A stretch of 64,000 bases of DNA from the NCBI GenBank assembly GCA_963833985.1, contig CAWIAD010000001.1, forward strand, positions 2,944,001 through 3,008,000, in the 5' to 3' direction. The notes under the pieces were generated by a model. That model ran no database searches, had not been told where the DNA came from, and saw nothing but the letters and a program-made list of their open reading frames with translations. Position 1 is the first letter of the stretch; every line of letters begins with the position of its first letter. Both the position numbers and the translations under genes were made by a program. This stretch comes from an uncultured Planctomycetaceae bacterium (GTDB taxonomy: Bacteria; Planctomycetota; Planctomycetia; Isosphaerales; Isosphaeraceae). Positions 44,742 through 61,645 of the stretch are shown in pieces.

Positions 44742-46727
44742 GATCGCGGGCCAGCGAAATCGAACCCAAACTGACCGGCAGGCGGGTAGGCGTCTTCCCG
44801 TGACGAGGCGAGACACCGGCGACCATGGCCGGGGCCGCGCTGCACTCCGGCACAACGAGCGACGGGTAATCGGGAGAGAATGAAACAGACGTGGGGGTGT
44901 AAGACACGGTTCGTTTTTCTGAGGTCCTACGCCGCTTTCCCAGTTTCCCTGGCTTGATAGTTGCGGAAGGGGCTGCTGGGCCTCTCTTCGAGGTACCGAC
45001 CAGGCGTCCGTCTCGGAGATGAACGACTTTCGAAGCGAAGCATCGTCTCGGACCGGCTTGCTCCAGAATTTCGCAGACCCTTGACTCGCCGGTTGAAGAC
45101 TTCACGCTCGACTCCACGTGACTGCTCGTCCAAGGCAATCACCCGCGTCGATAAGCAGGGTAGTCCATACACTCTCGATATGCTCCAGGTAGCCGAGTTC
45201 TTGGGCGATGATCTTGCGCGGGTCATCGTCGGCCAGCCGTTCGAGCTCGTCTCCGGATAAGGACGCCTGGGCATCTCGCAGGGTACGGAGTTCCTCAATC
45301 ACCTGGCCCACGCGTCCCTTAAGAAGGCATCACGCTCATGTCTGGAACAACTCTCAACGGCCGGCGGTTTCGATCGCGGGAGCCTTGGCGCCGCGAACAG
45401 GTGACCCAGGGCGTGGAGAAAATCAACGATGGCCAGAAAGGTCGGAAAATGCCGTTGCTGCAATTTCCAGATCCAGGCCGAGCCGTCCCCCAGGAACGCC
45501 CGATGAGCCGCTTTCATGAGATTGCGTCGCCACGCCTCCGCGGCCACCATCGGCCCGAATTGCTCGCTGGAGCAGGTGCTCGCCACGTAAGTCCGCACCA
45601 CCAGTCGGGCCTTACCCTTGGCTCGGACCGATCCCCGGCGGACGGCAGAGATGCTTCGTCGATGTTCTCCGCCGGGGCCTCCTGTAGGCCCATCGAGCTC
45701 GACCCGCTGATCCCACCGGCGAGCTTCCGACGGCTCCCGTCTCGGTAGCACGCCGGCACCACGGGCTCCGGGTCACTCCGAGACGAGAATGGCCATGGTG
45801 GCCAGAATCGCGATCTTGTCCTCACGCCAGGACGCATCATGGGCACCGGGCCCTTCCCCCTGGCCGCGAATCTGCAGCCGGCCGCCGTCAACCTCGACCA
45901 CTGCCAGAGCCGGCCGTGTCTCGACTCGCGGCTCGAGCTTATGGGCTTGAAGTTCGCTCACATGCTGATCTCTCTCGGCCTGCAATTGTTGGCCGACCTC
46001 CTGGGCGATGCGGCCGATCTGCCGACTGCCGATGGTCACCTCGGCCAATTCCGCCATCGCCTCGGCCGCCTCCCGGAAGGAGGGCTCCCGGGCACCGCAA
46101 CGGACGATCTTGCGCAGCACCGAAGGGCTGTAGTCATGTGGCGTGAGGCGCAAGGCCGGACGCTGAGGGAAAAAAATCCCGGCGACATGCCGGGCAGTGG
46201 CACTTCGGTTCGGCGTAGGTGACCTTGCCTCCCCAGAATTCAATGGTTCGATCGTTGCGTTGCACCGGACAGAGCCGCTTGCAGTTGGGACAAGGCTGCT
46301 CGGCCCCCAAGAGGGAGGCTTTCTGCTTCAGGAGTTCCTCGATGGTTCCCTTGGCCACGGCACAGGCCGCGGTCATGGCCATTTGTTCCATGTCGTCGGC
46401 ATCGAGGTCCAGGTCAGGCCCAACTTCTTCGTGGACCCGTCGCGCCACAGTTTTCCCCCACCCTTTGGCCATCTGCTCGACCCCGGTGCGATCCATCGAT
46501 GGTGACTTACGGAAAGGCATAGCAGGTCCCTCCTTGGACTTCCGGTGACGGACAATTTGGGAAACTTGACTTGACATGCTACCACCGGCCTCGGGCGGCG
46601 CGAAGCGTTTAAACACAGCGTGGGTGCATATTCGACCGGGGTTGACCGGGCCTGGCCTTCGCCGTAAGTTAACCCGCGATGTCCGGGTTGCCCGGTCGGT
46701 CGAGTATCGGCCGCGGAATCGGCTTCT
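44742..46727. repeat. ~255-bp dispersed repeat, copy 2, interrupted by the ISKra4-like element
   Basis: 44742-44895 plus 46619-46727 rejoin into a full copy at duplicated CGTGGG. Confidence 0.8.
44896..46618 (-). mobile_element. ISKra4-family IS, degenerate transposase
   Basis: CPNCKR..CHCPACRRDFFP followed by a GATTTTTTTCCC slippery site; VEVDGGRLQ, WREDK, FLGDGSAWIW, IVDFLHA, TSSHVESSVK in several frames; CGTGGG duplicated at 44890-44895 and 46619-46624; IRs imperfect. Confidence 0.85.
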
Positions 46728-46792
46728 CGAAGACATATCAAACTCGGTCCAGCGAAACGATCCGCCCACCCCAGGGAAGGGGGCGACTGGCC

Positions 46793-48849: not shown

Positions 48850-51800
48850 TCATTCGCCCTCTGCATCTGCGTCCTCGTCCGGGACGCTCGGGTCCGCGGC
48901 TGCGCCCGCCAGGCTCATCAGGTCGGCGTGGCACTCGCTCAGCAGCACGGGAGGAATCTCTCCCAGCGGCAGCTTGCGGCTCCGGGATCCAGGGGCCTTG
49001 CCAGTTGCGGCGGACTGGAAAGACAGGGACAGGCGGGTGGCGTTCTCCTTCTCGTCGAAGTCGGCGACGCGGATCTCGGCATGCAGATTCGCGGCAGGGA
49101 AATGCCTCAGGAAATGATCGCCGCCGTCCTCGACGCGGAATGCGACCGGGTCGTAGCCCAGGCCCCGGGCGCGACGGCTGAGCGGTACGAATGGCTGCGG
49201 CTGGGCCAGCGCGACGGGCCACTCTCTGGCCGACCGCGCGTCTTTGGGCAGCCGGAACGGAGCATGGCCGAACTGCGTGAGCAGGGGCTCGATCTCGAAG
49301 TCCGCCAGGTGAACGGCCCAGCGCGCGGCCGTCCTGTACGGGAGGTTCAGCCGGTGCGCTATCGTGACGCTGGCGGACGCGGCAGGCTCGACCAGGTTGT
49401 CATCCAGATCGGTCAGCGTACCGTCCTCCAGGGGGCGGAATGTCGATACCGTTCCCGCTTCATCCTTCCAGGTCCAGACCACGCGAGTGCAGAGCCGGCC
49501 GGCCACCGGATGGCCCAGGAGCGTCCGCTTCCAGTCGGCGAACGTCCAGGAGCGCTGGAGGCACATCGCTTCGTGCAGCCGCTCGACAACTCGCTTGCGA
49601 ATCGCCTTGACTCCTTCTTCACCGCACTGAGCCGGGTCTTCGCGGCCGCGGCCAGCTCGGGATTGTCGTTCTTGCCAGGCGCGGGGAGCTTCTCGATCGT
49701 GGTTCCCGACACGTCCCCGAGCACCAGCTCGGCATCGTCATCCAGCCGCGCGAAGAACTGCCGCGGGCCGAAATCGAGCATGAGCTTCCCCTCGGCGTCG
49801 AACCCGGCGTCGGGAAGTGATTGGTCGGCCAGGTCCGCCACGGTCATGTGCTTGCGCTCGGCCAGCTTGCGCACCTGGTCCTCCGCCTCCTGGCGAATGG
49901 TGGCGGTCCGAAAACGCTTCGCCACGTCCAGCAGGAAGGCCACAGCCTCGGCATGATCGATCCAGGCAAGCACCTGGACGAGTGCCCGGCACTGCGCGGC
50001 CCGGTAGCCGTACCACTGGTTGATGTACGAGCGAATCCGATCGACCACGCCGGCCGGCCCGCAGGCCGCAGCCAGCGCCAGGAACCCCTTGTCCTCGGGC
50101 CGTGTGGACATCGGCCAGTTGCGCTCGAACTCGACGGCCTGTGCCAGCTCGGGCCGCTTCTGGACAATTTCATCGATGCTCGCCGCACCGGTCCAGGTCA
50201 TGAACTGAAGCAACCGGCGTGTCAGTTCTTCCTGCGTCGGCGGCCGCAAGTCCTCGGCCAGCCAGGCCTCGAACACGCTCTCGCCGAGGCGCCGGGCGTC
50301 CTGCTCGTGAATCAGCTTCACCTGCTCGCGCAGGATGACCGTCGGCTCAGCCGACCTCGTTTTCCAGGCCGAGACCGCCAGCCACTGCACCACGTCGGGC
50401 GTGATCGGCGTGCCGTCACTGCCCCAGCGCACCGCGGGGAGGCGATCGAACGGGAACCACGAGCACTTGGCTGGAATGCCCTTCTTCAGGCCGGCGACAG
50501 CCTCCGCCTGGAGCGCCGCGCGGCCGCGCGGGTCGGCCTGCGCGGTCGAGGCAGCCGCCTGCGCCTCGCCAAGACTCTCCAGGGCGCTGGCCAGGGCGGC
50601 CTTCACTTCCGCTGTTTTCTCGACCTCGAGAGCCGCGCAGAGCGCCAGGATGGCACCCTCAGGCCGCGACCGCTTCAGCCAGCCAATCGCAGCGCTGCGC
50701 ATCTGCGCCTTGCCTCCCTTCAGGGCATCGAACAACCTCTTCCGCCAGTCCGGCAGCTTCTCCAGGCACTTGCACGCGAGATCGCGCTCCCCCTCCACGG
50801 CACCCAGCGCCAGGTCCCAGAGCCGGGGAACAAACCGGGCGGGAGGTTCCGGGAACGCCGTGAGGATCGCCAGGATCGTTTGCCTTCGCTGCGCCGGAGG
50901 CATCATCCCTGTGCCCCAGTGACGCGCGGCACGGGCCGGGGCCTCCAGGTGCCGTGCCAGCCAGTCCTGGCGGTCCGCGAAGTAAGACCAGGTGGACTCG
51001 TCATCCCAATCGAAGCGCCGGTACGAGGCGGGCATGAGCCGGGCGCCGGCGATGGTCTCAGGATCGAGCGCCGCTGCCTGGAACGCATCAGCCAGATCGC
51101 GCAGGCTGAGGCGCGGCTGATGCGAGTCGCGATACGCGGCCATCAGCCTCTCGAACGTCTGACGTGGTACGGAGTAGTCCAGATGACCCGCCAGCGCGGC
51201 ATGCGGGCTCGGCTGGAGCAGGCCCGCAAGCCGCAACAGCCGGACGGCGTGCAGCGGTGTCAGCTCGGGGCGGGCGAGCAGTAGCCTGAGGCCCTCCAGG
51301 TCCTGCTTCGCCGCTTTCTCCAGGACCCGGGGCGGATCCACGCTCCAGGGCTGGGGATCGGTGAGCAGGGCAAAAGCCTGCTGGATCTCATCACCGGTGA
51401 GGTGCCCGCCCCATGCGGCCAGCGCCGAACGGAAGCCCTCATCCAGGGCAACGTGCGCCAGCACGTCACCGCGAGTCTCCGTCCGTGGCGCTCCTGCGGA
51501 CTGCTGGCCAGCCTGGAGCATCAGCTCATCCAGGACCTTGCGGACGGAGGGGGTCTTCTCGGAGCCGGCACGCTCGCGCAGAAAGGCCTGTCCCTCGGCC
51601 AGCTCGAGCCGGCCGATCAGCCGCAGGGCATGCGCCCGCTCTTCCGGCTTGCCCGTCTCGGCGATCGCCCGGAGGGCGGGGAACGCGGCCGCGCCGGCCT
51701 GCCCCACCAGCAGGCTCGCGCCTTCGCGCACGCCTTTCGCCGACCCGGCCGCCAGCCCCGCGAGTTCATGCAGAAACGGGGCAACGGGAATCGCCAGCTT

Positions 51801-52526
51801 CTGAAACGTCTCGATTGCCAGGGAACGCACCAGGGCGGAGCTGTCGCACAGCGCGTTTCGGACCAGCCCGTGCCGCCTGGCAAGGCGCTCGCCGTAGCCG
51901 CCGAGACCGCCCAGCAGCGACATCGCGTTCATGGACACGCTATCATAAGATCTTGCAGGAAACGCGTGCTTGTAGAGCATCTCTGGGTCATGACCGTCGG
52001 CCTCGAGCAATCGCTCGACTGTTTCCGCCGGGAGCCTGTTCTTGTGGATCGGGAAGATGGCTCCCTTGTACTCCGTCCGGGCGCCCAGTCGAATGAGCAG
52101 CTCCAGCCAGGGGGGCGGCGAGAGCGGTTGCAAGGAAGCGATCATCTGGTGCACGACCGCGCCCTTTCCAGCAATGTGCACGAGGATCTTGCCCGGTCCG
52201 AGGGTCGCCGAGAAGACCTTCGCGAACCGCAGAAGGACCGGCGCGGGTAGCTCCGAAGCGCTATCCAGAAGCACATCCCAGGCCGGTACCGGCGTCTGCC
52301 GGCTGGATGGCGGCAGGCCGCCGTAAGAGAGGTCGATCCCCAGCAGAAGGGCCGCGTTCGGGGCACTTCCCAGCAACACCAGGGCGGCCTCATCCGTGCC
52401 GTCGACCACGAAACTCAACAGCCGATCCGGCAGTGCCAGGTCAATGGCTTCCACCGGCCGAAATCCTTCCGCCAGGGCTGCCATGTGGGAACTGGGAAGC
52501 GCGCACGAGTGTTCGAGAATTGCCAA
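48850..52526 (-). CDS. Large HEAT-repeat protein with C-terminal DUF4132 domain (frameshift near 49590, probably others)
   Basis: LADQSLPDAGFDAEG..LDFGPRQF, KLPAPGKNDNPELA, RLHEAMCLQRSW..DW...HPVAGRLCTRVVW; TTG start with AGAAAGG upstream (alternative ATG 52484). Confidence 0.85.
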
Positions 52527-52617
52527 GGTGAGCCAGCCTTTCTGCCCGGGGGTCCCCGGCGATCCAGATTCGGTTCGGATCGGCGCCCGCCAGTAGCCTA
52601 GCACGCGGCGTCCAGGC

Positions 52618-55600
52618 TCACGGCTGCGTGCGCTTCCGGAGCTGGTCGCCCATGCTCCTGACCCACTCCTCCGGCGGCAGGCCGTAAGGCCGGAACTTCT
52701 TCGAGCCGGTTCTGCTCCTCGCTGGCGAAGAGCGCGCGGTTCGGGCCAAGCTTGCTGGCCGCCGGTGAATCGAGCAATCCGCCCGAGTCCGTCGGGCTCA
52801 TCTGGAAGAGCACCCGCATGGCGAACTCGCGGAGCTGCTGGTGCGTGGCATAGCGGTTCAGGTTGTTCACGGTGTCGCACCAGGCCAGCAGGTGAACGCC
52901 GAAGCCCGGGCCCTCCCGCAGGATGATGTCGAGGTGGTCGGGCGGAGTCAGCTCGTCTTCCTTGCGGCCGAAGCCAAAGTCGTCCTCGCGCCGGCGCAGG
53001 TCGCGGAACCGCGACAGGTCGTGGATGAGCAGGAAGATCTCGGGCCCGTCGCCGGAGTCTGGCTGCTGGCGGAGGGCCACCTCGCCGGCCACCGCCGCAA
53101 GGAATGGCGCCGCGTCACGCCAGCCGCCCACCTTGACCTCGTGCGGCAGGGCCGACGCGATGCGCGCCAGCGCCCCCGCCTGCTCGTCGTCCTCGGGAGT
53201 GCCGTCGAGCACGAAGAACCGCGCCCCGTAGCGCGTGCCATCGCTCCGTGCCGGAGGGAACTGTGCCGCCAGGCTGAGCAAGGCCGCGGCCGTCACCCCC
53301 ACCGCGGCCTCGCCGTTCTGGCCGACGATCAGCAGGTGGCTGCCCCCCTGGCGGCGAAACAGGGCCGAGGTCGGCTCCTTGATGGCCACCGGGTCGCCGA
53401 CCCATGCCAGTGCCGACTTCGGCGTCTCCGGCCAGGCCGGTAGATCGAGCTGCTGGCCGAGCAGGGGATTGGCGCCAGGTCGGCGGCGGCGTCCCCCTCG
53501 AAGACGATCGGCGTGCGTGCCAGCGCGGGGGACGTTCGCGGCCCAGGGCGCTGAGCTGCCGGAGATACTCTTCCTTGCGCTCGTCGGAAAGCCAGACAAC
53601 CTGGAAAAAGTGGTTCCCCTCCGGCGCTCCGTTGGCATCGTTGTAGATGGCCTCGCCCGGCCGCGAGAGCCACTTCGCCGCCAGGTTGTTCTCGGCCAGG
53701 ATGAGCAGCGAATCCACCTCGCTGCATTGCAGGGCGATGCGCACGGCCATCTGCCCAAGCGTGCTGCGGGCGAGCGTGAACGCTCCGCCCAGCGACTGCG
53801 ATCCCAGGTGTACGTGCACGCCGAAGGCCCGGCCCTGGCGCACCAGGCGGTCGAGCAAGAGCGCGGCCTCCTGCGCGAGCTTGTCCTCCTCGACGAAGAA
53901 CTCCTGGAACTCGTCCACGATGAGCAAGATCCGGGGCAGGGGAGTCGTCCCGGCGCATTACGGTAGCCGCTCACGTCCTGCACGCCGGCGTCGCGGAACC
54001 GGTCGGCCCGCATCTTCATTTCCAGGTCCAGCCGCTGGAGCACGCTGATGCCGAATTCGCGCTCGCTCTCGATGGCCACCACGCTGGCGTGCGGCAACCC
54101 GAACGTGGCGTAGATCTTGAACTCCACGCCCTTCTTGAAGTCGATGAGGTAGAGGTCGATCTCGTCGGGGCTGTAATAGAGCGCCAGGTTCGTGATCAGG
54201 GCGTGCATGAGCGTGGACTTGCCCGAGCCCGTGCGGCCGGCAATAAGCACGTGCTGCGAGGTTCCCTGGCCGAGCGTCAGGTTCTGCCGCTTGGTCGCCC
54301 CCGCCTTCCCCAGGGCGATGTCGATGCCCGAGCGGCTGTCCTGCGTCCACCACGCCTCGCGTGGCGGTGCGATGAAGTCGAACGGCACCTCCACCCGTTT
54401 GGCCGCACGCGCCGCGGCCCCCACCTTCTGGATCTGCCGGGTGGCGAACTCGGACGGCGGGGGCGGGTCGAGCGCCAGCGGAAACGGGATAAGGTCGGGA
54501 TCGTCCCAGGCGAGATCGCCCTCTTTCCAGTCCAGGTGGGCACAGTGCGGCCGCAGGTCGTTCAGCCCGAAGCCCGGCGGCATGGTCCGGGACGTATCAA
54601 CGGCGGCCAGCACAAGCACGCCGCACGGCACGCCCCCCGCGGCGATGGAAGCCAGCCGCCCGGCGGCCTTCTCGTCAAACTTGACGGGAAAATCCGCGAT
54701 CACCAGCACGCGATAGGGCTCGGCCACTTCCTCCGCCACGGCGTTGTAGGCCTCGATGGTGGGATACTCGTTCCGCAGGTACTTCTGCGTGACGGTCTCC
54801 ATGTGGGCTTCCAGCTCGGCCAGCCGCTCATCGATCTGCCGCGGGTCGGTCCAGACCTGACCGTTCACGAGCGCGGGGTCGAAGTCGGCCAGGTGCATGA
54901 ACGCGCCGAAGTTGCGGCCGATTCCGATGGGATCGACGATCGTGAACCGCACCATTCCCGGCGGCAGGCTGGTGAGGATGCGGAACATCGACGCTTGAAG
55001 CACGGCCACGGCCGCGGCCCGGCCCTCCGGCGGCGTCTCGATGAGCAGGTTTGCCGCGCCGGGGAACGCGCGCATCACCGCCAGATCGAACCGCCGGCGA
55101 ATTCCCTCCATGAGCCGCGGATCGCTCGAGACTCCACCGGGCAGGCTCGCCAGGTCGACAGCCGCCTCTCCCAGCCGCAGCACCGGCGGCAGAGAACGGG
55201 GCAGGGGCCGGTCGGCCCACGACGGATCGTCCCATGGCGGGCCGACCGCGTCCACGGCCTGGCGCACGGCCGCCAGCTCGGCCGTCACCCGCTCCATCCC
55301 CTCGCGCCAGCGGCCGGCCATGGCGGCCCACTTCTTCTCGTAGCGGGACTTCACCTGCTCCTTCAGGCTCTGGTAGTTCTCGTCCAGCTTCACCAGGCCG
55401 CGCTCGGTCTGGACCTTGAGCTCGGCCATCCGCTGGCGGTTCGCGTCGACGGCCTCGCTCATCGCCGTGGCCTGGGTGGTCTGGACGTCCACCATCCGCT
55501 GGGCGTAAACCTCATTGATGTGGCGGATCTGCTCGTCGCGCCGGGCCTCACCCTGCTCGATGGTCCGGACGTGCTGCTCCTTGGCCCGCGCCTGCTCCTC

Positions 55601-56604
55601 CTCATGCCTGGCGGCCAGCCGCTTGCGCTCCTCGGCGTGGCGGGCGTCGGCCTGCGCGGCCGTAGTCCAGCAGGGCCGTGACGTCCGCCAGCGATTGCAT
55701 GAGCGGGTCGTAAAGCCGCTGGAGCTGCTTTTTCGAGATCTGCACCAGCCAGGTGCGCAACAGCCCGCCCAGGGCCAGGCCGGTGACGGCCAGACCGGCG
55801 ATGCCGGCGGCGGGCAGCTCCAGCAGGATGGCGACGACCACGCACAGAAGCAGCGGGACCACGAAAGTCCAGGCCTCACGCGCACCCTTCATCATCTTCG
55901 GGATGACCAGCTTTTCCAGCAGGTTGACCGCCGGCTCCATCCGTCCCAGCCGGTTGAAGGCCTCGTCCACCGGCGGCTGGAACTTGTCGTACGATTCGCG
56001 CCGGGGCGGGCGGGTCGGGCTTGAGCTGGAACTTGACGTACTCGGCGGCAAGCCGCGCCAGCCGCTCGCGGAACCCGTCGCTCGCCTGGACGGCCGAGCT
56101 GATCGGCTGCAATTCCTTGGTGTGCTCGCCGGCCGCCTTCCGCTTGCCGGCCTCGAGCTGGCTGGCAGCGACACCGCGTGCGCGCTGGTAGTCACTCTTG
56201 GCCGTCTCGCGCAAAGCATCGAACTCGGCGGCGATGCGCCGGCTGGACGAGGCGAAATCTGCCTTGGTCCTGGCCTCTCCGGTCATCGCGGCGTTCACGA
56301 TCGACCGCCTGCGCTGCTCGTCGTCGGCCCGGGCCTCGCGGTCGAGCGCCTGGTACTTGTCAACGAATCCCTGCCGCGACTTCGCGTATTCGGTCTCCAC
56401 CCTGGCGTCGTTGGACGCCCGCGTTTCCTCGACGTCCTTCTCGGCCGCGGCGCGCTCGGCCGTCAGCCGCAAGAGCTCGCGCAGGGCCGCGCTCTGGCGG
56501 CCGGGCAGGTCGTGGGAGGCAGCAGCAACCTTTCCGTCCAGAGGACTGGAAGGGGCCGGCGGCTCCGTGCCGGCAATGGTGCGCAGGGCGCTCGATGTGC
56601 TCAC
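52618..56604 (-). CDS. Membrane-anchored FtsK/SpoIIIE-family ATPase (EssC/EccC-like), ~1330 aa when about 6 frameshifts are repaired
   Basis: Coiled coil, 2 TM helices, coiled coil, degenerate ATPase-like domain, active domain HVLIAGRTGSGKS / YLIDFKKGVEF / LIVDEFQEFF / RQGRAFGVHVHLGSQ, third degenerate domain (HLLIVGQ, ILREGPGFGVHL); repaired end KFRPYGLP...KRTQP* at 52618. Confidence 0.88.
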
Positions 56605-56840
56605 AGGCTCTCACTCCGGTCGGAACAATCGCGGCGCACCTGGTCGAGTACCTCGGCCACCTTCTGCATGCCCGTGACCGCGGCGTCGATGGCCGGATCC
56701 AGCGGCGCCAGGTAGCGGTCCTCGAACCTGTGGCGCACCGCGTCGCCCCAGGTCGCCTCGGTGATCAGCCACTGGTCCTTGAGCGAGCGCAGCGTCTGCT
56801 TCAGCCGATTCGCGCCCATCAGAACTTTCGCGTTTGGCAT
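56601..56840 (-). CDS. 79-aa WXG100-like helical hairpin protein
   Basis: Two predicted amphipathic helices around central TWGD (LKDQWLITEATWGDAVRHRFEDRYL); stop overlaps the FtsK GTG (GTGA); GAGGT RBS. Confidence 0.7.
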   Translation of the reverse strand: MPNAKVLMGANRLKQTLRSLKDQWLITEATWGDAVRHRFEDRYLAPLDPAIDAAVTGMQKVAEVLDQVRRDCSDRSESL

Positions 56841-56846
56841 GCGGAC

Positions 56847-57497
56847 TCACCTCTCGTCGGGTTCACGCATCGGTTCGTCTTGCGGCTGCGGCGCAGACTC
56901 GGCCGGCTCTTCCTCGATGGCCTTGACCGCGATCTCCTGGAAGGCGGCAGGCGCGGCCGTCACCGCGGCTTGCGGCGCGGCCTGGTCCAGGCTCGCCGGT
57001 GCGGCCATAGCCGGCGGCGCCAGTTGCAGGTAGGCCTCCAGCGCGTCGATGATGCGGGTGAGAAGGTTGAGCGCGCGTGGCATGTCGGAGGCGGCCAGCT
57101 CCTTGATCCTCTGGATGCTGCCGTGATACTCAAGTGCAGCCTGGTGGAACAGCGGCTGCCACTTGCGCACCAGCAGGAGCCGCTTCTCGGCGTCCTGCAA
57201 CCCGGCCTCGGCGCGGCGGAGGATCTCCATCGGCTCGCTCAGCGAGGGCGAATAGTCCGGCTTCTTCTGGAGCTTGCGGCGAAAGACCTCGGCCCGCGCC
57301 GCCGCCACTTCCTCGCGCCGCCGCTTGATCTGCTCTTGCCAGTAATAGGGCCGGTCCTGCTGGAGCCACTGTCCGGTGCGTCGCACCTCGAACTCGACCG
57401 CCCCCAGTGCCGCCAGCGTATCGTCGGCATAGAGCGCCAGCGCCGTGCGGAAGTCCTTGAGCGCATCGATCGAATGGACTTCAGCCTGAGAGCTCAT
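56847..57497 (-). CDS. All-helical WXG100/LXG-like protein, first gene of the FtsK operon
   Basis: MSSQAEVHSIDALKDFRTAL...; coiled-coil pattern with conserved-looking Trp residues; C-terminal LEAYL then Ala/Pro/Glu tail; 6 nt from next gene. Confidence 0.65.
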   Translation of the reverse strand: MSSQAEVHSIDALKDFRTALALYADDTLAALGAVEFEVRRTGQWLQQDRPYYWQEQIKRRREEVAAARAEVFRRKLQKKPDYSPSLSEPMEILRRAEAGLQDAEKRLLLVRKWQPLFHQAALEYHGSIQRIKELAASDMPRALNLLTRIIDALEAYLQLAPPAMAAPASLDQAAPQAAVTAAPAAFQEIAVKAIEEEPAESAPQPQDEPMREPDER

Positions 57498-57692: not shown

Positions 57693-57947
57693 TCAATTGG
57701 AAGCGGCTTCAAAACTCACTTGATGGTGACCCTGTCCGGTGGCCCGGTAACCGGCGCAGGCGATCGCCATCTTCGCGGTTTGGAGGGCAGCGTTGTAGGC
57801 CGTTGCAAAAGCGCGGTCCGCCGAAAGCCCGGCAAGACTTGCATCGCGAAGGTCCCGCGCGATCACGGTCCGAAGGTCATCCAGCTCCGACTTGCTTGTG
57901 GCGTGCGGCCGGACCCGGTTGGAATTGAGTAACTGCCTCCAGGTCAT
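57693..57947 (-). pseudogene. HEPN-like toxin partner of the MNT gene, apparently C-terminally truncated
   Basis: RDLRDA...FATAYNAALQ...GYRATGQGHHQVSFE then stop at 84 aa; the expected downstream R-rich catalytic segment is absent. Confidence 0.65.
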
Positions 57948-58521
57948 GCTGATCCCCAACCACAAAGAGCTTCTCGCGGCTGCTCACGGTGATAAGAAAA
58001 TGATGCCTTTCGGAGATCTTCTTTGCGACCTCTTCCGGAGTGTAAATGGACGGGTTCACCGGGCGGAGAAGCTTTTCCTCCGCGGTTTTCAGCGCAAGGG
58101 CAAGCTCGGCAAGTCCCAGGCGGCCGATGACCATCAAGTCCACGTCGCTGCCAGGACCTTCCTCCTGCCGCGCAATAGAACCATGAACGAAGGCGACGTC
58201 GATGCGCTCGCGAAGTGGTTGCAGGCACCCGGCCAGGACATCTCTCAGCCCCGCCGTCTTGAGGAAAAGCCCGTGAAGTTCTGGAAAGATCGGACTCGAG
58301 GTCTCTGCCGCGTAATAGCCCCGGTTTCCATCTGCACGCCTACGCAGGATCCCTCCCGCGACAAGCGCAGCGAGCTCTCGCTGAAGGCTCGACGGCCGTA
58401 CCTCAAGACGCCGGGCGAGATCCGAGAGATACCATTCCCTGGAAGCATCCCCGTACAGCACAGCCAGGATGCGCTGGCGTGTTCTGGGCATCAGGGCGTC
58501 GAGCGGTTTTGTTTCACGCAT
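57877..58521 (-). CDS. wHTH + minimal nucleotidyltransferase (MNT) antitoxin
   Basis: N-terminal wHTH (YLSDLARRL..SLQRELAAL), AFVHGSIAR...SDVDLMVIG. Confidence 0.9.
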   Translation of the reverse strand: MRETKPLDALMPRTRQRILAVLYGDASREWYLSDLARRLEVRPSSLQRELAALVAGGILRRRADGNRGYYAAETSSPIFPELHGLFLKTAGLRDVLAGCLQPLRERIDVAFVHGSIARQEEGPGSDVDLMVIGRLGLAELALALKTAEEKLLRPVNPSIYTPEEVAKKISERHHFLITVSSREKLFVVGDQHDLEAVTQFQPGPAARHKQVGAG

Positions 58522-58602
58522 TCTGCGTTACTCTACACGCGATTTGCGTAAGGTTCAACTGCGCTTCCGAGTTTCTGCCACGAAGGTAGAGACTGGAGTG
58601 GC

Positions 58603-58781
58603 CCGGTGGAACAGCGGCTGCCACATACGCACAAGGACAGGCCGCTTCCCGGCGTCCTGCTAGCCGACCTGGGCGCGGCGGAGGATTTCCATCGGCTCAC
58701 TCCTGGACAGTGAGTACCGGGCTATATCTGGAGCTTGCGCGGAAGACCTCCGCCCGAGCCGCCGCCACCCTCGCGCCGCCG
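58603..58781 (-). pseudogene. Degenerate duplicate of an internal part (57141-57323) of the WXG100/LXG-like gene
   Basis: e.g. GGTGGAACAGCGGCTGCCAC, GGCGCGGCGGAGGAT(C/T)TCCATCGGCTC, CTGGAGCTTGCG, GCCGCCGCCAC shared collinearly, with indels. Confidence 0.8.
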
Positions 58782-58806
58782 TTCCTCGTGCGGGCATTCC
58801 CGCTGG

Positions 58807-59307
58807 TTATTCGTCACCCGAGGGGCCGTACATGCCGGGGACCGGGATGTCGTTCAAGCGCAGGTAGACGCACAGGATGGCCCGGTGGTGAACGATGTGG
58901 TTGAGGACGAACGACCTCACGATGGTGGACCTGGGCATGCTGAAGATCGGATTGCCGGCCCGTAACAAGGTCCACGTGCACCCCATCTCCTCGTCCGTGG
59001 CCGCCACGAGCGCTGCCCGCGCGGCCGCGACGTTGTGGTCAAAACTCTCAAGGATCTCCGCCCGGCTGCCCAGGTTCGGCAACCGGAACGGCTCGCCACC
59101 GACCGGGGCGGTGTCCAGCGATGTCGAGTTCAACGCGTGCACGAGCCAATCCGGCAGGTTCGCCAGGTGATTGGCGTTCCACCCGATCGTGTGCGACTTC
59201 GGATGCGGCTGCCAGTCCAGCTTATCATCCGGGATGCGCTCGAGAACCTTGCGCGTGCTGGCCATTTCCTGGTCGAACTCGGGCAGAAGCATTTCGGCAT
59301 AGGTCAT
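58807..59307 (-). CDS. DinB/YfiT family protein
   Basis: LPEFDQEMASTRKVLERIP, WQPHPKS, HIVHHRAILCVYLR...VPGMYGPS. Confidence 0.92.
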   Translation of the reverse strand: MTYAEMLLPEFDQEMASTRKVLERIPDDKLDWQPHPKSHTIGWNANHLANLPDWLVHALNSTSLDTAPVGGEPFRLPNLGSRAEILESFDHNVAAARAALVAATDEEMGCTWTLLRAGNPIFSMPRSTIVRSFVLNHIVHHRAILCVYLRLNDIPVPGMYGPSGDE

Positions 59308-59520
59308 GAGAAACCCCCCTGAAATCCTGGGACCTGGCCCGAAGGCCGTTGACTGCGCCCATGGCATTGGAACCAGGTATCGACAGATTGTCAACTTCTG
59401 TACACTACTTTTCGGGCGACGCACTTTTTGCCCCGGTGCGCGATGCTTGAGCGCGGTGGTGGGTCTCGCTACCTTGGCCCTTTGCCTGTGGAGCATGATG
59501 CGGTGGATCAGAATGCGCGA

Positions 59521-61330
59521 ATGAACGCAGTAGAGAAGACGAAGGCGGAGGATGATCTCCGCACCGAGTACGAGCGCCGGCGGGACGACCGGGAAATGGC
59601 TCACAAGCGTGCCAGCCGGCGGGAGCATCAGGTGGCCGACGCCCGGCTGGCTGTGTTTTCCGTGGGACTTGTGCTGGCGTTCTTCATTTACTGGATGCAC
59701 TGGCCGGATGCCCTCTGGCTGAGCGTTCCGCTGGTCCTGTTCATCGGGCTGGTGCTGGTGCACGAACCGCTGCGAAGGCAGGTCCGGCGCGGATCGAGCG
59801 GCCTCCTTTTACGCACGCGGGCTGGCCAGGCTCGACGATCGCTGGGCCGGGACCGGGGTGGGCGGCGACTCGTTCCTGGACCTGAACCATCCCTACGCCG
59901 CCGACCTGGACCTGTTCGGTCGCGGCTCACTATTCGAGCGGCTGTGCACGGCCCGCACTCGAGCCGGGGAAGAGACGCTGGCCGCCTGGCTGCTGGCACC
60001 CGCGGCGCCGGAATCGATCGCGGAGCGGCACGAGGCGATCACCGAGCTGCGGCCCAGGCTGAATCTCCGCGAGGACCTGGAGCTGTACGGCTCGGACGTC
60101 AGGTCGGCCATCGATCCGGAAGCGCTCGCCGGGTGGGGGAACGCCCCGCGCGTCTTTCACGGCAGGGCCTTACCGATCGCGGCCGCGGCGCTGGCACTTT
60201 TCGGCACGGCCGCGGTGCTGGGCTGGTTCTTCCTCGACCTGCCGTTGCGCTGGCTGCTCGCCGGGCTGGCGCTGGAGACCGCATTCGCCATGGCGCTGCG
60301 GTCCCGGGTCGATCATGTGCTTGCCGCCGTGAGCGAACGTTCGGCCGACCTCGTACTGCTGAGCGACCTGCTCGATCGCATCGAGCGAGAGCCGTGCGGT
60401 CGGCCGTTGCTGGAGCGGGTGCGTCACTCGCTTCAAACGGGAGGCCGACCGGCCTCGGGGCAGATTCGCCGCCTGGCCCGGCTGGTCCACCTGCTTGAGA
60501 CGCGTAGGAACCAGTTCTTCTTGCCGATCGCGGCACTGCTGCTCTGGAGAACGCAGCTCGCCATGGTGATCGACGCATGGCGCGGGACCGCGGGACCGTG
60601 CATCGCCACCTGGCTGAAGGCCGTGGGTGAGTTCGAGGCGATCTCGGCGCTGGCGGCCTACGCGGCGGAGAACCCGGCCGACGTGTTCCCGGAGGTCGTG
60701 CCCGGCCCGGCTCGATTCGAGGCCGAGGCGCTCGGGCATCCGCTGCTGGCGGTGTCACAATGCGTACGCAACGACCTGAGCCTGGGAACCCAGGTGCACG
60801 CGGCAGTGGTGAGCGGGTCGAACATGTCGGGCAAGAGCACGTTGCTCAGATCGGTGGGCGTGGCGGCCGTGATGGCACTGGCGGGCGCACCGGTGCGGGC
60901 GGCCAGGCTGTCGCTCTCGCCGCTGTCCGTCGGGGCGACGCTGCGGATTCAGGATTCACTCCAGGCCGGCAAGTCGCGGTTCTATGCCGAGATCACGCGC
61001 GTGCGTCAGGTTGTGGACCTGGCGGCCGGTCCGCTGCCGCTCCTGTTCCTCTTCGATGAGCTCTTCCACGGCACGAACTCGGACGATCGCCGCCGGGGTG
61101 CCGAGGCGGTGCTGCGCGGCCTTCTGGACCGCGGAGCGATCGGCCTGATCACGACGCACGACCTGGCGCTGGCGAAGATTGCCGAGGGGATCGGTCCACA
61201 GGCCGTGAACGTGCACTTCGCCGACCATTTCGAGAACGGCCAGATGCACTTCGACTACACGATGCGGCCCGGCGTGGTGGAGCATTCCAACGCCATTGCG
61301 CTCATGCGGGCCGTGGGGTTGAATGTGTAA
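59521..61330 (+). CDS. Membrane-anchored MutS domain V ATPase (MutS-related), frameshift near 59800
   Basis: N-terminal TM helices, HPYAADLDLFG, SGSNMSGKSTLLR, SRFYAEI, FDELFHGTNS, TTHDL. Confidence 0.9.
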
Positions 61331-61448
61331 GCGACAGGCAAGAGCGTACTTGACGGGCACCCGGGACGTTGCTTCGAGACCGGACGGCCTGGCGATTCTC
61401 GAGGGACCCGTGTCCATACGTGTCATTCCTTGATTCAAATAACCCCAG

Positions 61449-61645
61449 TGGCACGATCGGAATCGTGCCCCACGTGGGGAGGGAAAGAATGGCACGATCG
61501 GAATCGTGCCCCACGTGGGGAGGGAAAGAATGGCACGATCGGAATCGTGCCCCACGTGGGAAGGGAAAGAATGGCACGATCGGAATCGTGCCCCACGTGG
61601 GGAGGGAAAGAATGGCACGATCGGAATCGTGCCCCACGTGGGGAG
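61449..61645. repeat. Tandem array of 4.8 x 41-bp REP-like palindromic units
   Basis: Unit TGGCACGATCGGAATCGTGCCCCACGTGGGGAGGGAAAGAA starting 61449, 61490, 61531, 61572, 61613; one G>A variant in unit 3; between convergent genes. Confidence 0.95.

Follow-up and report, generated by a model that had tools for sequence, protein, structure and literature searches.

A candidate type VII-like export unit without a linked toxin in the planctomycete family Isosphaeraceae

Introduction

An ATPase together with WXG100 proteins is the core common to characterised type VII secretion systems (T7SSs), and the T7SSc-j variants set out by Garrett 2024 come from Bacillota and Actinomycetota only, with planctomycetes unmentioned in the passages covered here (PMC11217815). 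A related locus is described in this study in an uncultured Planctomycetaceae bacterium of the family Isosphaeraceae. It lies in a stretch of 64,000 nucleotides (nt), referred to as the window (positions 2,944,001 to 3,008,000 of CAWIAD010000001.1, assembly GCA_963833985.1), which is part of contig 1 of a 10.2-Mb genome assembled in two contigs. Two genes for small helical proteins (A and B) are followed there by a gene for an EccC/EssC-like ATPase; a second locus of the same genome has a further small gene (C). We estimate a probability of roughly 55% that A, B and the ATPase represent a domesticated type VII-like export unit without a toxin, present here as a second copy specific to Isosphaeraceae.

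Minimal systems of this kind are already in print, and the papers named below are cited for the passages that deal with them. Table 1, note 6 of Zhang 2012 (PMC3482391), a paper that uses the term 'mobile versions of T7SS', assigns to planctomycetes solo WXG domains and a three-domain YueA-like ATPase in which the middle domain alone is active. The system studied here has the same ATPase architecture, a WXG partner and planctomycetes among its carriers, but it broadly tracks its host lineages and persists when scattered, and the note is silent on A, B and transmembrane (TM) helices. Bell 2024 (PMC11090510), citing Anantharaman 2012, describes an operon that pairs a coiled-coil nuclease with an ATPase devoid of TM helices, and states that such TM-less relatives probably use another mechanism. 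This operon resembles ours in the three ATPase domains with an active central one, in the long N-terminal coiled coil, and in its two WXG100-type proteins (one without WxG) and coiled-coil protein. It differs in that a D-ExK nuclease is fused to the coiled coil, a small DNA-mimic-like gene comes next and the ATPase lacks TM helices, whereas the window locus has a bare carrier and a two-TM ATPase, without linked TerY-P or McrBC genes and without a canonical WXG100 protein. The HP0062/HP0066 'minimal set' of H. pylori is covered in PMC3397514 and PMC4978471.

The window locus almost certainly belongs to this HP0062/YueA-like minimal class. The original prediction had called it uncharacterised and a candidate for a novel system, a claim that gives way to the comparative-genomics papers in which the class was described. 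What is added here is the toxin-free carrier, the modelled A:B pair, the co-retention of scattered genes and the paralog without its own WXG100. No paper testing or describing the planctomycete form was found in a search that left most subscription journals outside its reach, and the passages covered in PMC3113570 and PMC12283558 hold nothing on this system. At stake are type VII-like export in Gram-negative-type cells and the make-up of the minimal machine, for a class predicted since 2012. If the domestication scenario put forward in the Discussion is right, this would be a type VII-like machine that does without accessory membrane proteins in a cell envelope of the Gram-negative type. The analysis yields four predictions: an A:B heterodimer, one active ATPase domain, a WXG100 protein common to two motors and a periplasmic end point.

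Results

Conservation and co-occurrence of the unit

Among 98 planctomycete loci encoding the ATPase family, 71 had at least 3 kb of upstream sequence. The upstream order was C-A-B in 48 of these, A-B in 16 and B only in one, and none of the three genes was present in six. A and B thus directly adjoin the ATPase in 64/71 loci, and for that reason the arrangement is not attributed to chance. No recurring neighbour in the 98 loci was conserved beyond the small hairpin genes C, A and B, and the conserved unit consists of three genes only, namely A, B and the ATPase. The synteny check suggested with the original prediction, run here on planctomycete loci, held for these three genes and failed for the fourth proposed operon member, a DUF4132 gene, homologs of which follow the ATPase in 4/98 loci, all of the same genus.

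All but one of the 16 A-B loci belong to closer relatives of the window locus, termed class II. Those class II rows that were included in phylogenetic trees formed one clade, with eight rows and a support of 100 in a 78-row tree run in quick mode only, and three rows with 100/99 in a careful tree. For the latter, 25 of the 78 rows were used and domains two and three of the ATPase were left out, with the intact ortholog L001 standing in for the window ATPase. Gene C, which encodes a canonical 90-amino-acid (aa) WXG100 protein, is absent at the window locus and at 15 other class II loci. A second locus of the source genome, of class I and on contig 2, does have C, and profile searches of this genome gave no A, B or C beyond the two loci (two A genes, two B genes, one C). 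The window copy is thus one of a clade of Isosphaeraceae paralogs that have no canonical WXG100 gene of their own. Another Pfam WXG100 match in the source genome proved to be the tail of a MotA/ExbB-type protein.

Across 31 related genomes, C was single-copy in 23 and missing in eight, comprising four incomplete same-genus genomes (65-89%) and four that also lacked A; the seven genomes with two full A copies had one C each. Of 151 genomes across the phylum, an identical set of 16 had the ATPase, B and C; A was found in all but one of these, plus one weak partial match elsewhere. The genomes of such a set include kin and are not independent. The four genes are spaced 0.47-1.2 Mb from each other in genome G148, which is a single contig, and occupy three separate sites in genome G026, with one copy each in both cases. 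Because of this co-occurrence and the scattered single copies, the parts behave as one functional unit even when unlinked, and retention in the same 16 genomes makes the system look domesticated rather than mobile. The genes of the class broadly track host lineages in planctomycetes. A Ser/Thr kinase domain fused ahead of this ATPase family was seen at one locus (L045:857-6103), with no C, A or B upstream, and no C relative was confirmed on viral contigs. The P. limnophila transposon supplements name canonical FtsK alone, with no essentiality reading for this system.

An EccC/EssC-like ATPase with one active domain

The ATPase is built of an N-terminal coiled coil of about 200 residues, two TM helices, a helix of approximately 190 residues and three FtsK/RecA-type alpha/beta domains. 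The structure model covers residues 151-1330 of the ortholog at a predicted local distance difference test (pLDDT) score of 81, with the N-terminal coiled coil helical in the modelled part. A hydrophobic segment was present in the TM region of 48/51 family members, as called by hydropathy only, with a crude scan that missed the TM helices of a Streptomyces EccC. Both ends of the protein are predicted to be cytoplasmic. The Walker motifs are confined to the middle domain: exactly one GxxGxGK[ST] was found in 51/51 family members, and the Walker B sequence DEFQE was invariant in the same 51.

Sequence profiles and Foldseek ranked EccC, then EssC, far over FtsK and TcpA, with scores that stay under the EccC and EssC cut-offs. 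The NCBIfam bit scores were 110 for EccCa (cut-off 509), 87 for EssC (cut-off 778) and 24 for FtsK. In the PDB profile search, EccC (4nh0) reached 1.7e-34, TcpA 2e-8 and FtsK 6e-7, and EccC was the best fold match in Foldseek (5.7e-28, against 6e-11 for FtsK). These rankings bear out the proposal of a minimal T7-like unit with an EccC/EssC-like motor. In the 25-row tree, the ATPase family formed one clade (99/97), apart from the EccC/EssC D1 domains (98/95) and from FtsK/TcpA (90/87), so that the grouping with DNA translocases that could have undone the proposal was not seen. The clade takes in plasmid members from Rhodococcus, Caballeronia, Helicobacter and Deinococcus. PADLOC returned matches to the ATPase domain only (SspH, mad8, HerA) and none for A or B.

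T7SSa (EccC) and T7SSb (EssC) likewise combine a two-TM multi-domain FtsK-type ATPase with WXG100-type hairpins. Unlike them, the window unit has three nucleotide-binding folds rather than four, NCBIfam scores far under the cut-offs and a diderm host, and it has no linked EccB/D/E/MycP, EsaA/EssA/EssB, ubiquitin-like or FHA part. The lack of visible EccB/D/MycP and EsaA/EssA/EssB homologs, already pointed out in the original prediction, was upheld: neither the proteins of the cassette nor those window neighbours that were scanned matched any of these families, and no genome-wide search for them was made.

B, C and the modelled A:B pair

The first reading of the window had taken A and B for a WXG100-like pair, which stands for B and not for A. 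In the B family, W31-x-D33 is invariant and WXG100 is the commonest Pfam match (21/63 members at E<=0.05, best 2.7e-5); the 79-aa window B, with its W-x-D, matched Pfam WXG100 (PF06013) at E 0.037, under the curated cut-off. S. aureus EsxA (2vs0) was the best non-repeat PDB match of the B profile (E 0.004), and B aligned with C at the W-x-D turn (E 0.0007). The WXG100-like character of B suggested by these comparisons is weak but consistent. B-slot proteins of Deinococcus and Rhodococcus matched B (0/200 shuffles). C scored above the Pfam WXG100 cut-off, and its nearest structure is H. pylori HP0062 (E 1e-10; PDB 3fx7 and 2gts), a homodimer with WRD. The A hairpin spans roughly 150 residues, about twice that of B, with a turn at 77-86 that lacks Trp (AlphaFold pLDDT 87.7); no WXG100 match was among the families listed for 57 A-family members, and profile comparison of A with B or C gave no match. 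TALE (transcription activator-like effector) and MHC (major histocompatibility complex) entries in the PDB profile searches were set aside as repeat or chance matches.

The expected A:B heterodimer was returned by modelling. In ESMFold2, B and the base of A formed an antiparallel four-helix bundle that scored 0.78, against 0.00 for the best of three controls, with at least 94% of contacts agreeing between runs and a partner pLDDT of at least 84. The mark applied to such scores was reached by 116/157 solved and 2/215 mismatched pairs, and is only roughly applicable with our own alignments. On this model, A and B probably form a heterodimer. The tip of A (about residues 57-98) is left free, a geometry that we take to resemble PE-PPE or LXG-partner pairs. 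In the ESM Atlas, only unnamed Planctomycetota/Verrucomicrobiota clusters were found; B led to a WXG100 cluster (0.84) and A to an Imm33-like cluster (0.83), which serve as leads only.

A carrier without a toxin

Fold searches for A returned generic coiled coils only (Foldseek none at E<=0.001; VIA-align top Z 10.5 with many ties). HHalign matched A to the N-termini of proteobacterial nuclease fusions (prob 88.9, E 2.4e-6), with a common turn motif and ALxxYL end, where the fusion profile consisted of 62 N-termini, mostly of one close family, two of which (L204, L233) later proved to be unrelated genes. Controls with a reversed profile and an unrelated coiled coil gave prob 0.3 and 0.2, respectively. 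The matched 436-aa protein occupies the gene slot of A and has a D..ExK nuclease-type motif in its C-terminal part in 58/58 cases. Furthermore, A residues 1-159 matched the N-terminus of a 314-aa Rhodococcus protein (prob 69.8).

On Helicobacter and Caballeronia plasmids the gene order is C, a long helical protein with a C-terminal domain, a small gene, a 76-77-aa gene and the ATPase. In Helicobacter, the long protein is a WHH nuclease and the small gene a SUKH immunity gene. The Helicobacter plasmid ATPase (823 aa) falls in the same clade as the window family, but the window locus has neither nuclease nor SUKH gene and lacks C: no nuclease is present on A, and no toxin gene, immunity gene or small gene follows the carrier. 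At their C-termini, the A proteins of planctomycetes have either a low-complexity tail or an Imm33-like domain, the latter in 8 of the best 150 representatives. From these comparisons, A is read as homologous to the carrier half of effector fusions but free of a toxin.

The eight Imm33-like fusions (P0269, P0325, P0344, P0359, P0363, P0373, P0387 and P0390) all scored over the PF24719 cut-off, and an ESM Atlas cluster of 433 members has the same A-Imm33-like form. These fusions are possibly exported immunity proteins or a relic of toxin loss. Two longer A homologs were read-through artefacts. At a Rhodococcus plasmid locus (L137:7715-13145), which has the closest ATPase outside the planctomycetes in the tree, the ATPase gene is followed by genes for an A-like carrier that has a C-terminal domain, for a B-like protein and for a WXG100 protein, with ter genes adjoining. 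The C-terminal domain of that carrier presumably has a ParB-like motif, with zero Pfam matches.

Integrity of the ATPase gene

Relative to the intact 1330-aa ortholog L001, the assembled ATPase gene is in seven pieces, with frame changes near 55996, 55660, 53952, 53530, 53465 and 52700. Across 1,271 aligned codons there were zero in-frame stops, and the differences by codon position (188/113/477) were dominated by the third. Five of nine other class II ATPase genes checked were also broken, mostly at different places, and four were intact. For these three reasons the frameshifts are probably assembly errors, and the possibility of a dead locus, raised with the original prediction, is unlikely.

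Discussion

A proposed export mechanism and what weighs against it

The export reading can be put as a series of steps. The two TM helices would mediate oligomerisation of the ATPase in the inner membrane, with the motor carried on a cytoplasmic coiled-coil stalk. In the model, B pairs antiparallel with the base of the A hairpin to give the four-helix bundle, which the ATPase would bind. An EsxA-like 90-aa WXG100 protein may be supplied in trans from the second locus, and the A:B bundle would then be moved across the inner membrane. Because no product of the operon reaches across the periplasm or outer membrane, the periplasm is the likely end point. The cargo could be an unlinked protein or else the tail of A itself, where some relatives have an Imm33-like domain. 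Export across the inner membrane as such is slightly more likely than not.

As an evolutionary account, we tentatively suggest that a mobile cassette for toxin export was domesticated in planctomycetes. Its nuclease and its immunity gene would have been lost, with an Imm33-like domain left on the carrier in some lineages, and the unit, with a motor anchored by two TM helices on a long stalk, would have become a toxin-free machine that is kept vertically and has an envelope role. Isosphaeraceae would then have duplicated carrier, partner and motor, with one EsxA-like protein serving two motors. This scenario is considerably more doubtful than export itself.

Several results weigh against the export reading. 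No channel, periplasmic or outer-membrane partner is conserved at the loci, no cargo was found, and neither A nor B shows a YxxxD/E export signal at its C-terminus. The tree places the ATPase family no nearer to EccC than to FtsK, as a three-way split with long branches. A did not match the N-terminus of the Helicobacter toxin (192/200 shuffles scored as high), and A-toxin fusions numbered 0 among the best 150 of 3,259 representatives in a weak search. Proteobacterial B-slot proteins did not match B (prob 0.5), and the A:B complex may have passed through likeness to solved WXG100 bundles. Finally, elsewhere in this genome five breaks were counted over about 21 kb of genes, whereas the ATPase gene has six in 4 kb (Poisson p about 0.0005), and the degenerate copy of A sits upstream.

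Alternative explanations

The strongest rival, which we nevertheless consider unlikely, is that no export takes place: tethered to the membrane, the ATPase would act in the cytoplasm as a motor that builds or takes apart the helical bundles for a task inside the cell, such as inner-membrane shaping or stress/immune signalling. The predicted cytoplasmic location of both ATPase ends, the long stalk helix of the model, the lack of linked toxin, immunity and channel genes, and the co-retention of the genes even when scattered would all suit such a motor, as would the different mechanism thought probable for TM-less relatives (Bell 2024, PMC11090510). ESCRT-III/PspA proteins were among the fold matches of A, but only amid many tied coiled coils (Z about 9). 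Against it stand the shared ATPase-WXG100 core of characterised T7SSs, the nuclease domains and downstream small gene of A homologs, which is the layout of exported toxins, and the patchy distribution in 16 of 151 genomes.

Less probable still is interbacterial toxin delivery, in which effectors encoded elsewhere would ride on A:B or on diverged carriers. It draws on the plasmid relatives in Helicobacter and Caballeronia, where a WHH nuclease with SUKH, or a nuclease-motif protein with a small gene, occupies the same slot, and on the Imm33-like domains fused to A. Against it, the source genome has just two genes each for A and B, the 98 loci share no recurring variable toxin/immunity cluster as a neighbour, and no outer-membrane component is linked. 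The contact antagonism entertained in the original prediction finds no support at the locus, which is devoid of toxin and immunity genes.

It is very unlikely that the system has four genes, with the DUF4132 protein as a part or cargo that perhaps substitutes for the lost WXG100 protein in this genus. In three same-genus genomes (G002, G004 and G013) the DUF4132 gene starts 9-61 nt past the ATPase stop on the same strand, in tandem arrays, and in the window the distance is 91 nt, counted from a likely TTG start (next ATG 52484). Because of the tight spacing in those three genomes, co-transcription with the ATPase is possible. However, of 15 class II loci with 4 kb or more of downstream sequence only four had a DUF4132 gene, class I loci had none, and in genome G010 the gene lies 4.9 kb away. 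All four same-genus arrays, composed of tandem divergent HEAT/DUF4132 paralogs (L149-L152), face an AAA_5/DUF5682/VWA_CoxE/SWIM (MoxR-vWA) cluster. The first gene of these arrays is orthologous to the window DUF4132 gene. In the source genome the array is split, and the MoxR-vWA cluster with a second DUF4132 gene lies 2.5 Mb away (L136, G000:C1:494000-504400). Profile searches gave no match of the A and B families to the DUF4132 protein. The DUF4132 gene is a genus-level neighbour from the MoxR-vWA cluster, outside the conserved unit, and its proposed membership of the system is not supported. The E. coli names for such a cluster are presumably yehLMPQ/molR.

That the ATPase acts on DNA, as a translocase or conjugative coupling protein, beside incidental small genes is hardly credible: a Pfam FtsK_SpoIIIE match and the plasmid location of some relatives point that way, whereas FtsK and TcpA scored far weaker than EccC and have a single motor domain where the window family has three domains in a separate clade, Pfam scans of the ATPase gave no FtsK gamma domain, a separate, weakly matching FtsK-type gene exists elsewhere in the source genome, and co-occurrence with WXG100 genes is strict.

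Genomic setting of the window locus

The four co-oriented genes of the original prediction were confirmed as minus-strand open reading frames (ORFs) at the expected positions (Table 1). The 6-nt gap between A and B, the overlap of the ATPase GTG start (56604-56602) with the TGA of B and the gap of about 90 bp to the HEAT/DUF4132 gene were confirmed as well.

Table 1 Features of the locus in window coordinates
Feature	Position	Strand	Description
Gene A	56847..57497	-	ATG at 57497, 216 aa; long helical hairpin (H10-76 and H87-159), then Ala/Pro/acidic tail
Gene B	56601..56840	-	79 aa; WXG100-like hairpin, W31-G32-D33
EccC/EssC-like ATPase gene	52618..56604	-	About 1329 codons, 6 frameshifts as assembled; stop 52620-52618
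Two hydrophobic helices of the ATPase	55745..55871	-	Short loop between, basic residues on both outer sides; read from translation
Walker A of the ATPase middle domain	54215..54238	-	GRTGSGKS; sole canonical P-loop
Walker B of the ATPase middle domain	53901..53930	-	ILLIVDEFQE; frameshift near 53952 lies between Walker A and Walker B
HEAT/DUF4132 gene	48850..52526	-	About 1225 codons, 1 frameshift near 49590; Pfam PF13646 and PF13569
Degenerate partial copy of gene A	58589..58781	-	193 nt, 160/193 bases identical (83%), indels and a stop

Scans for promoters and terminators gave signals at the shuffle level. The degenerate copy of A lies 1.1 kb upstream of gene A and is also upstream of a nucleotidyltransferase gene that forms part of an insert. 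This insert, at 57696-59283 between MutS and gene A, comprises a DinB-family gene, the partial copy and the helix-turn-helix (HTH)-nucleotidyltransferase gene; same-genus relatives have no insert at this place. The HTH-nucleotidyltransferase gene and a small downstream ORF look like a putative toxin-antitoxin pair. Fragmented ORFs at 45299-46769 resemble an insertion-sequence transposase, with zero Pfam matches for the two pieces scanned. The MutS-family gene (59428-61330) has a frame change near 59770 relative to intact orthologs, and a tandem repeat between MutS and the next gene (61302-61637) reads as a repeated peptide in several reading frames.

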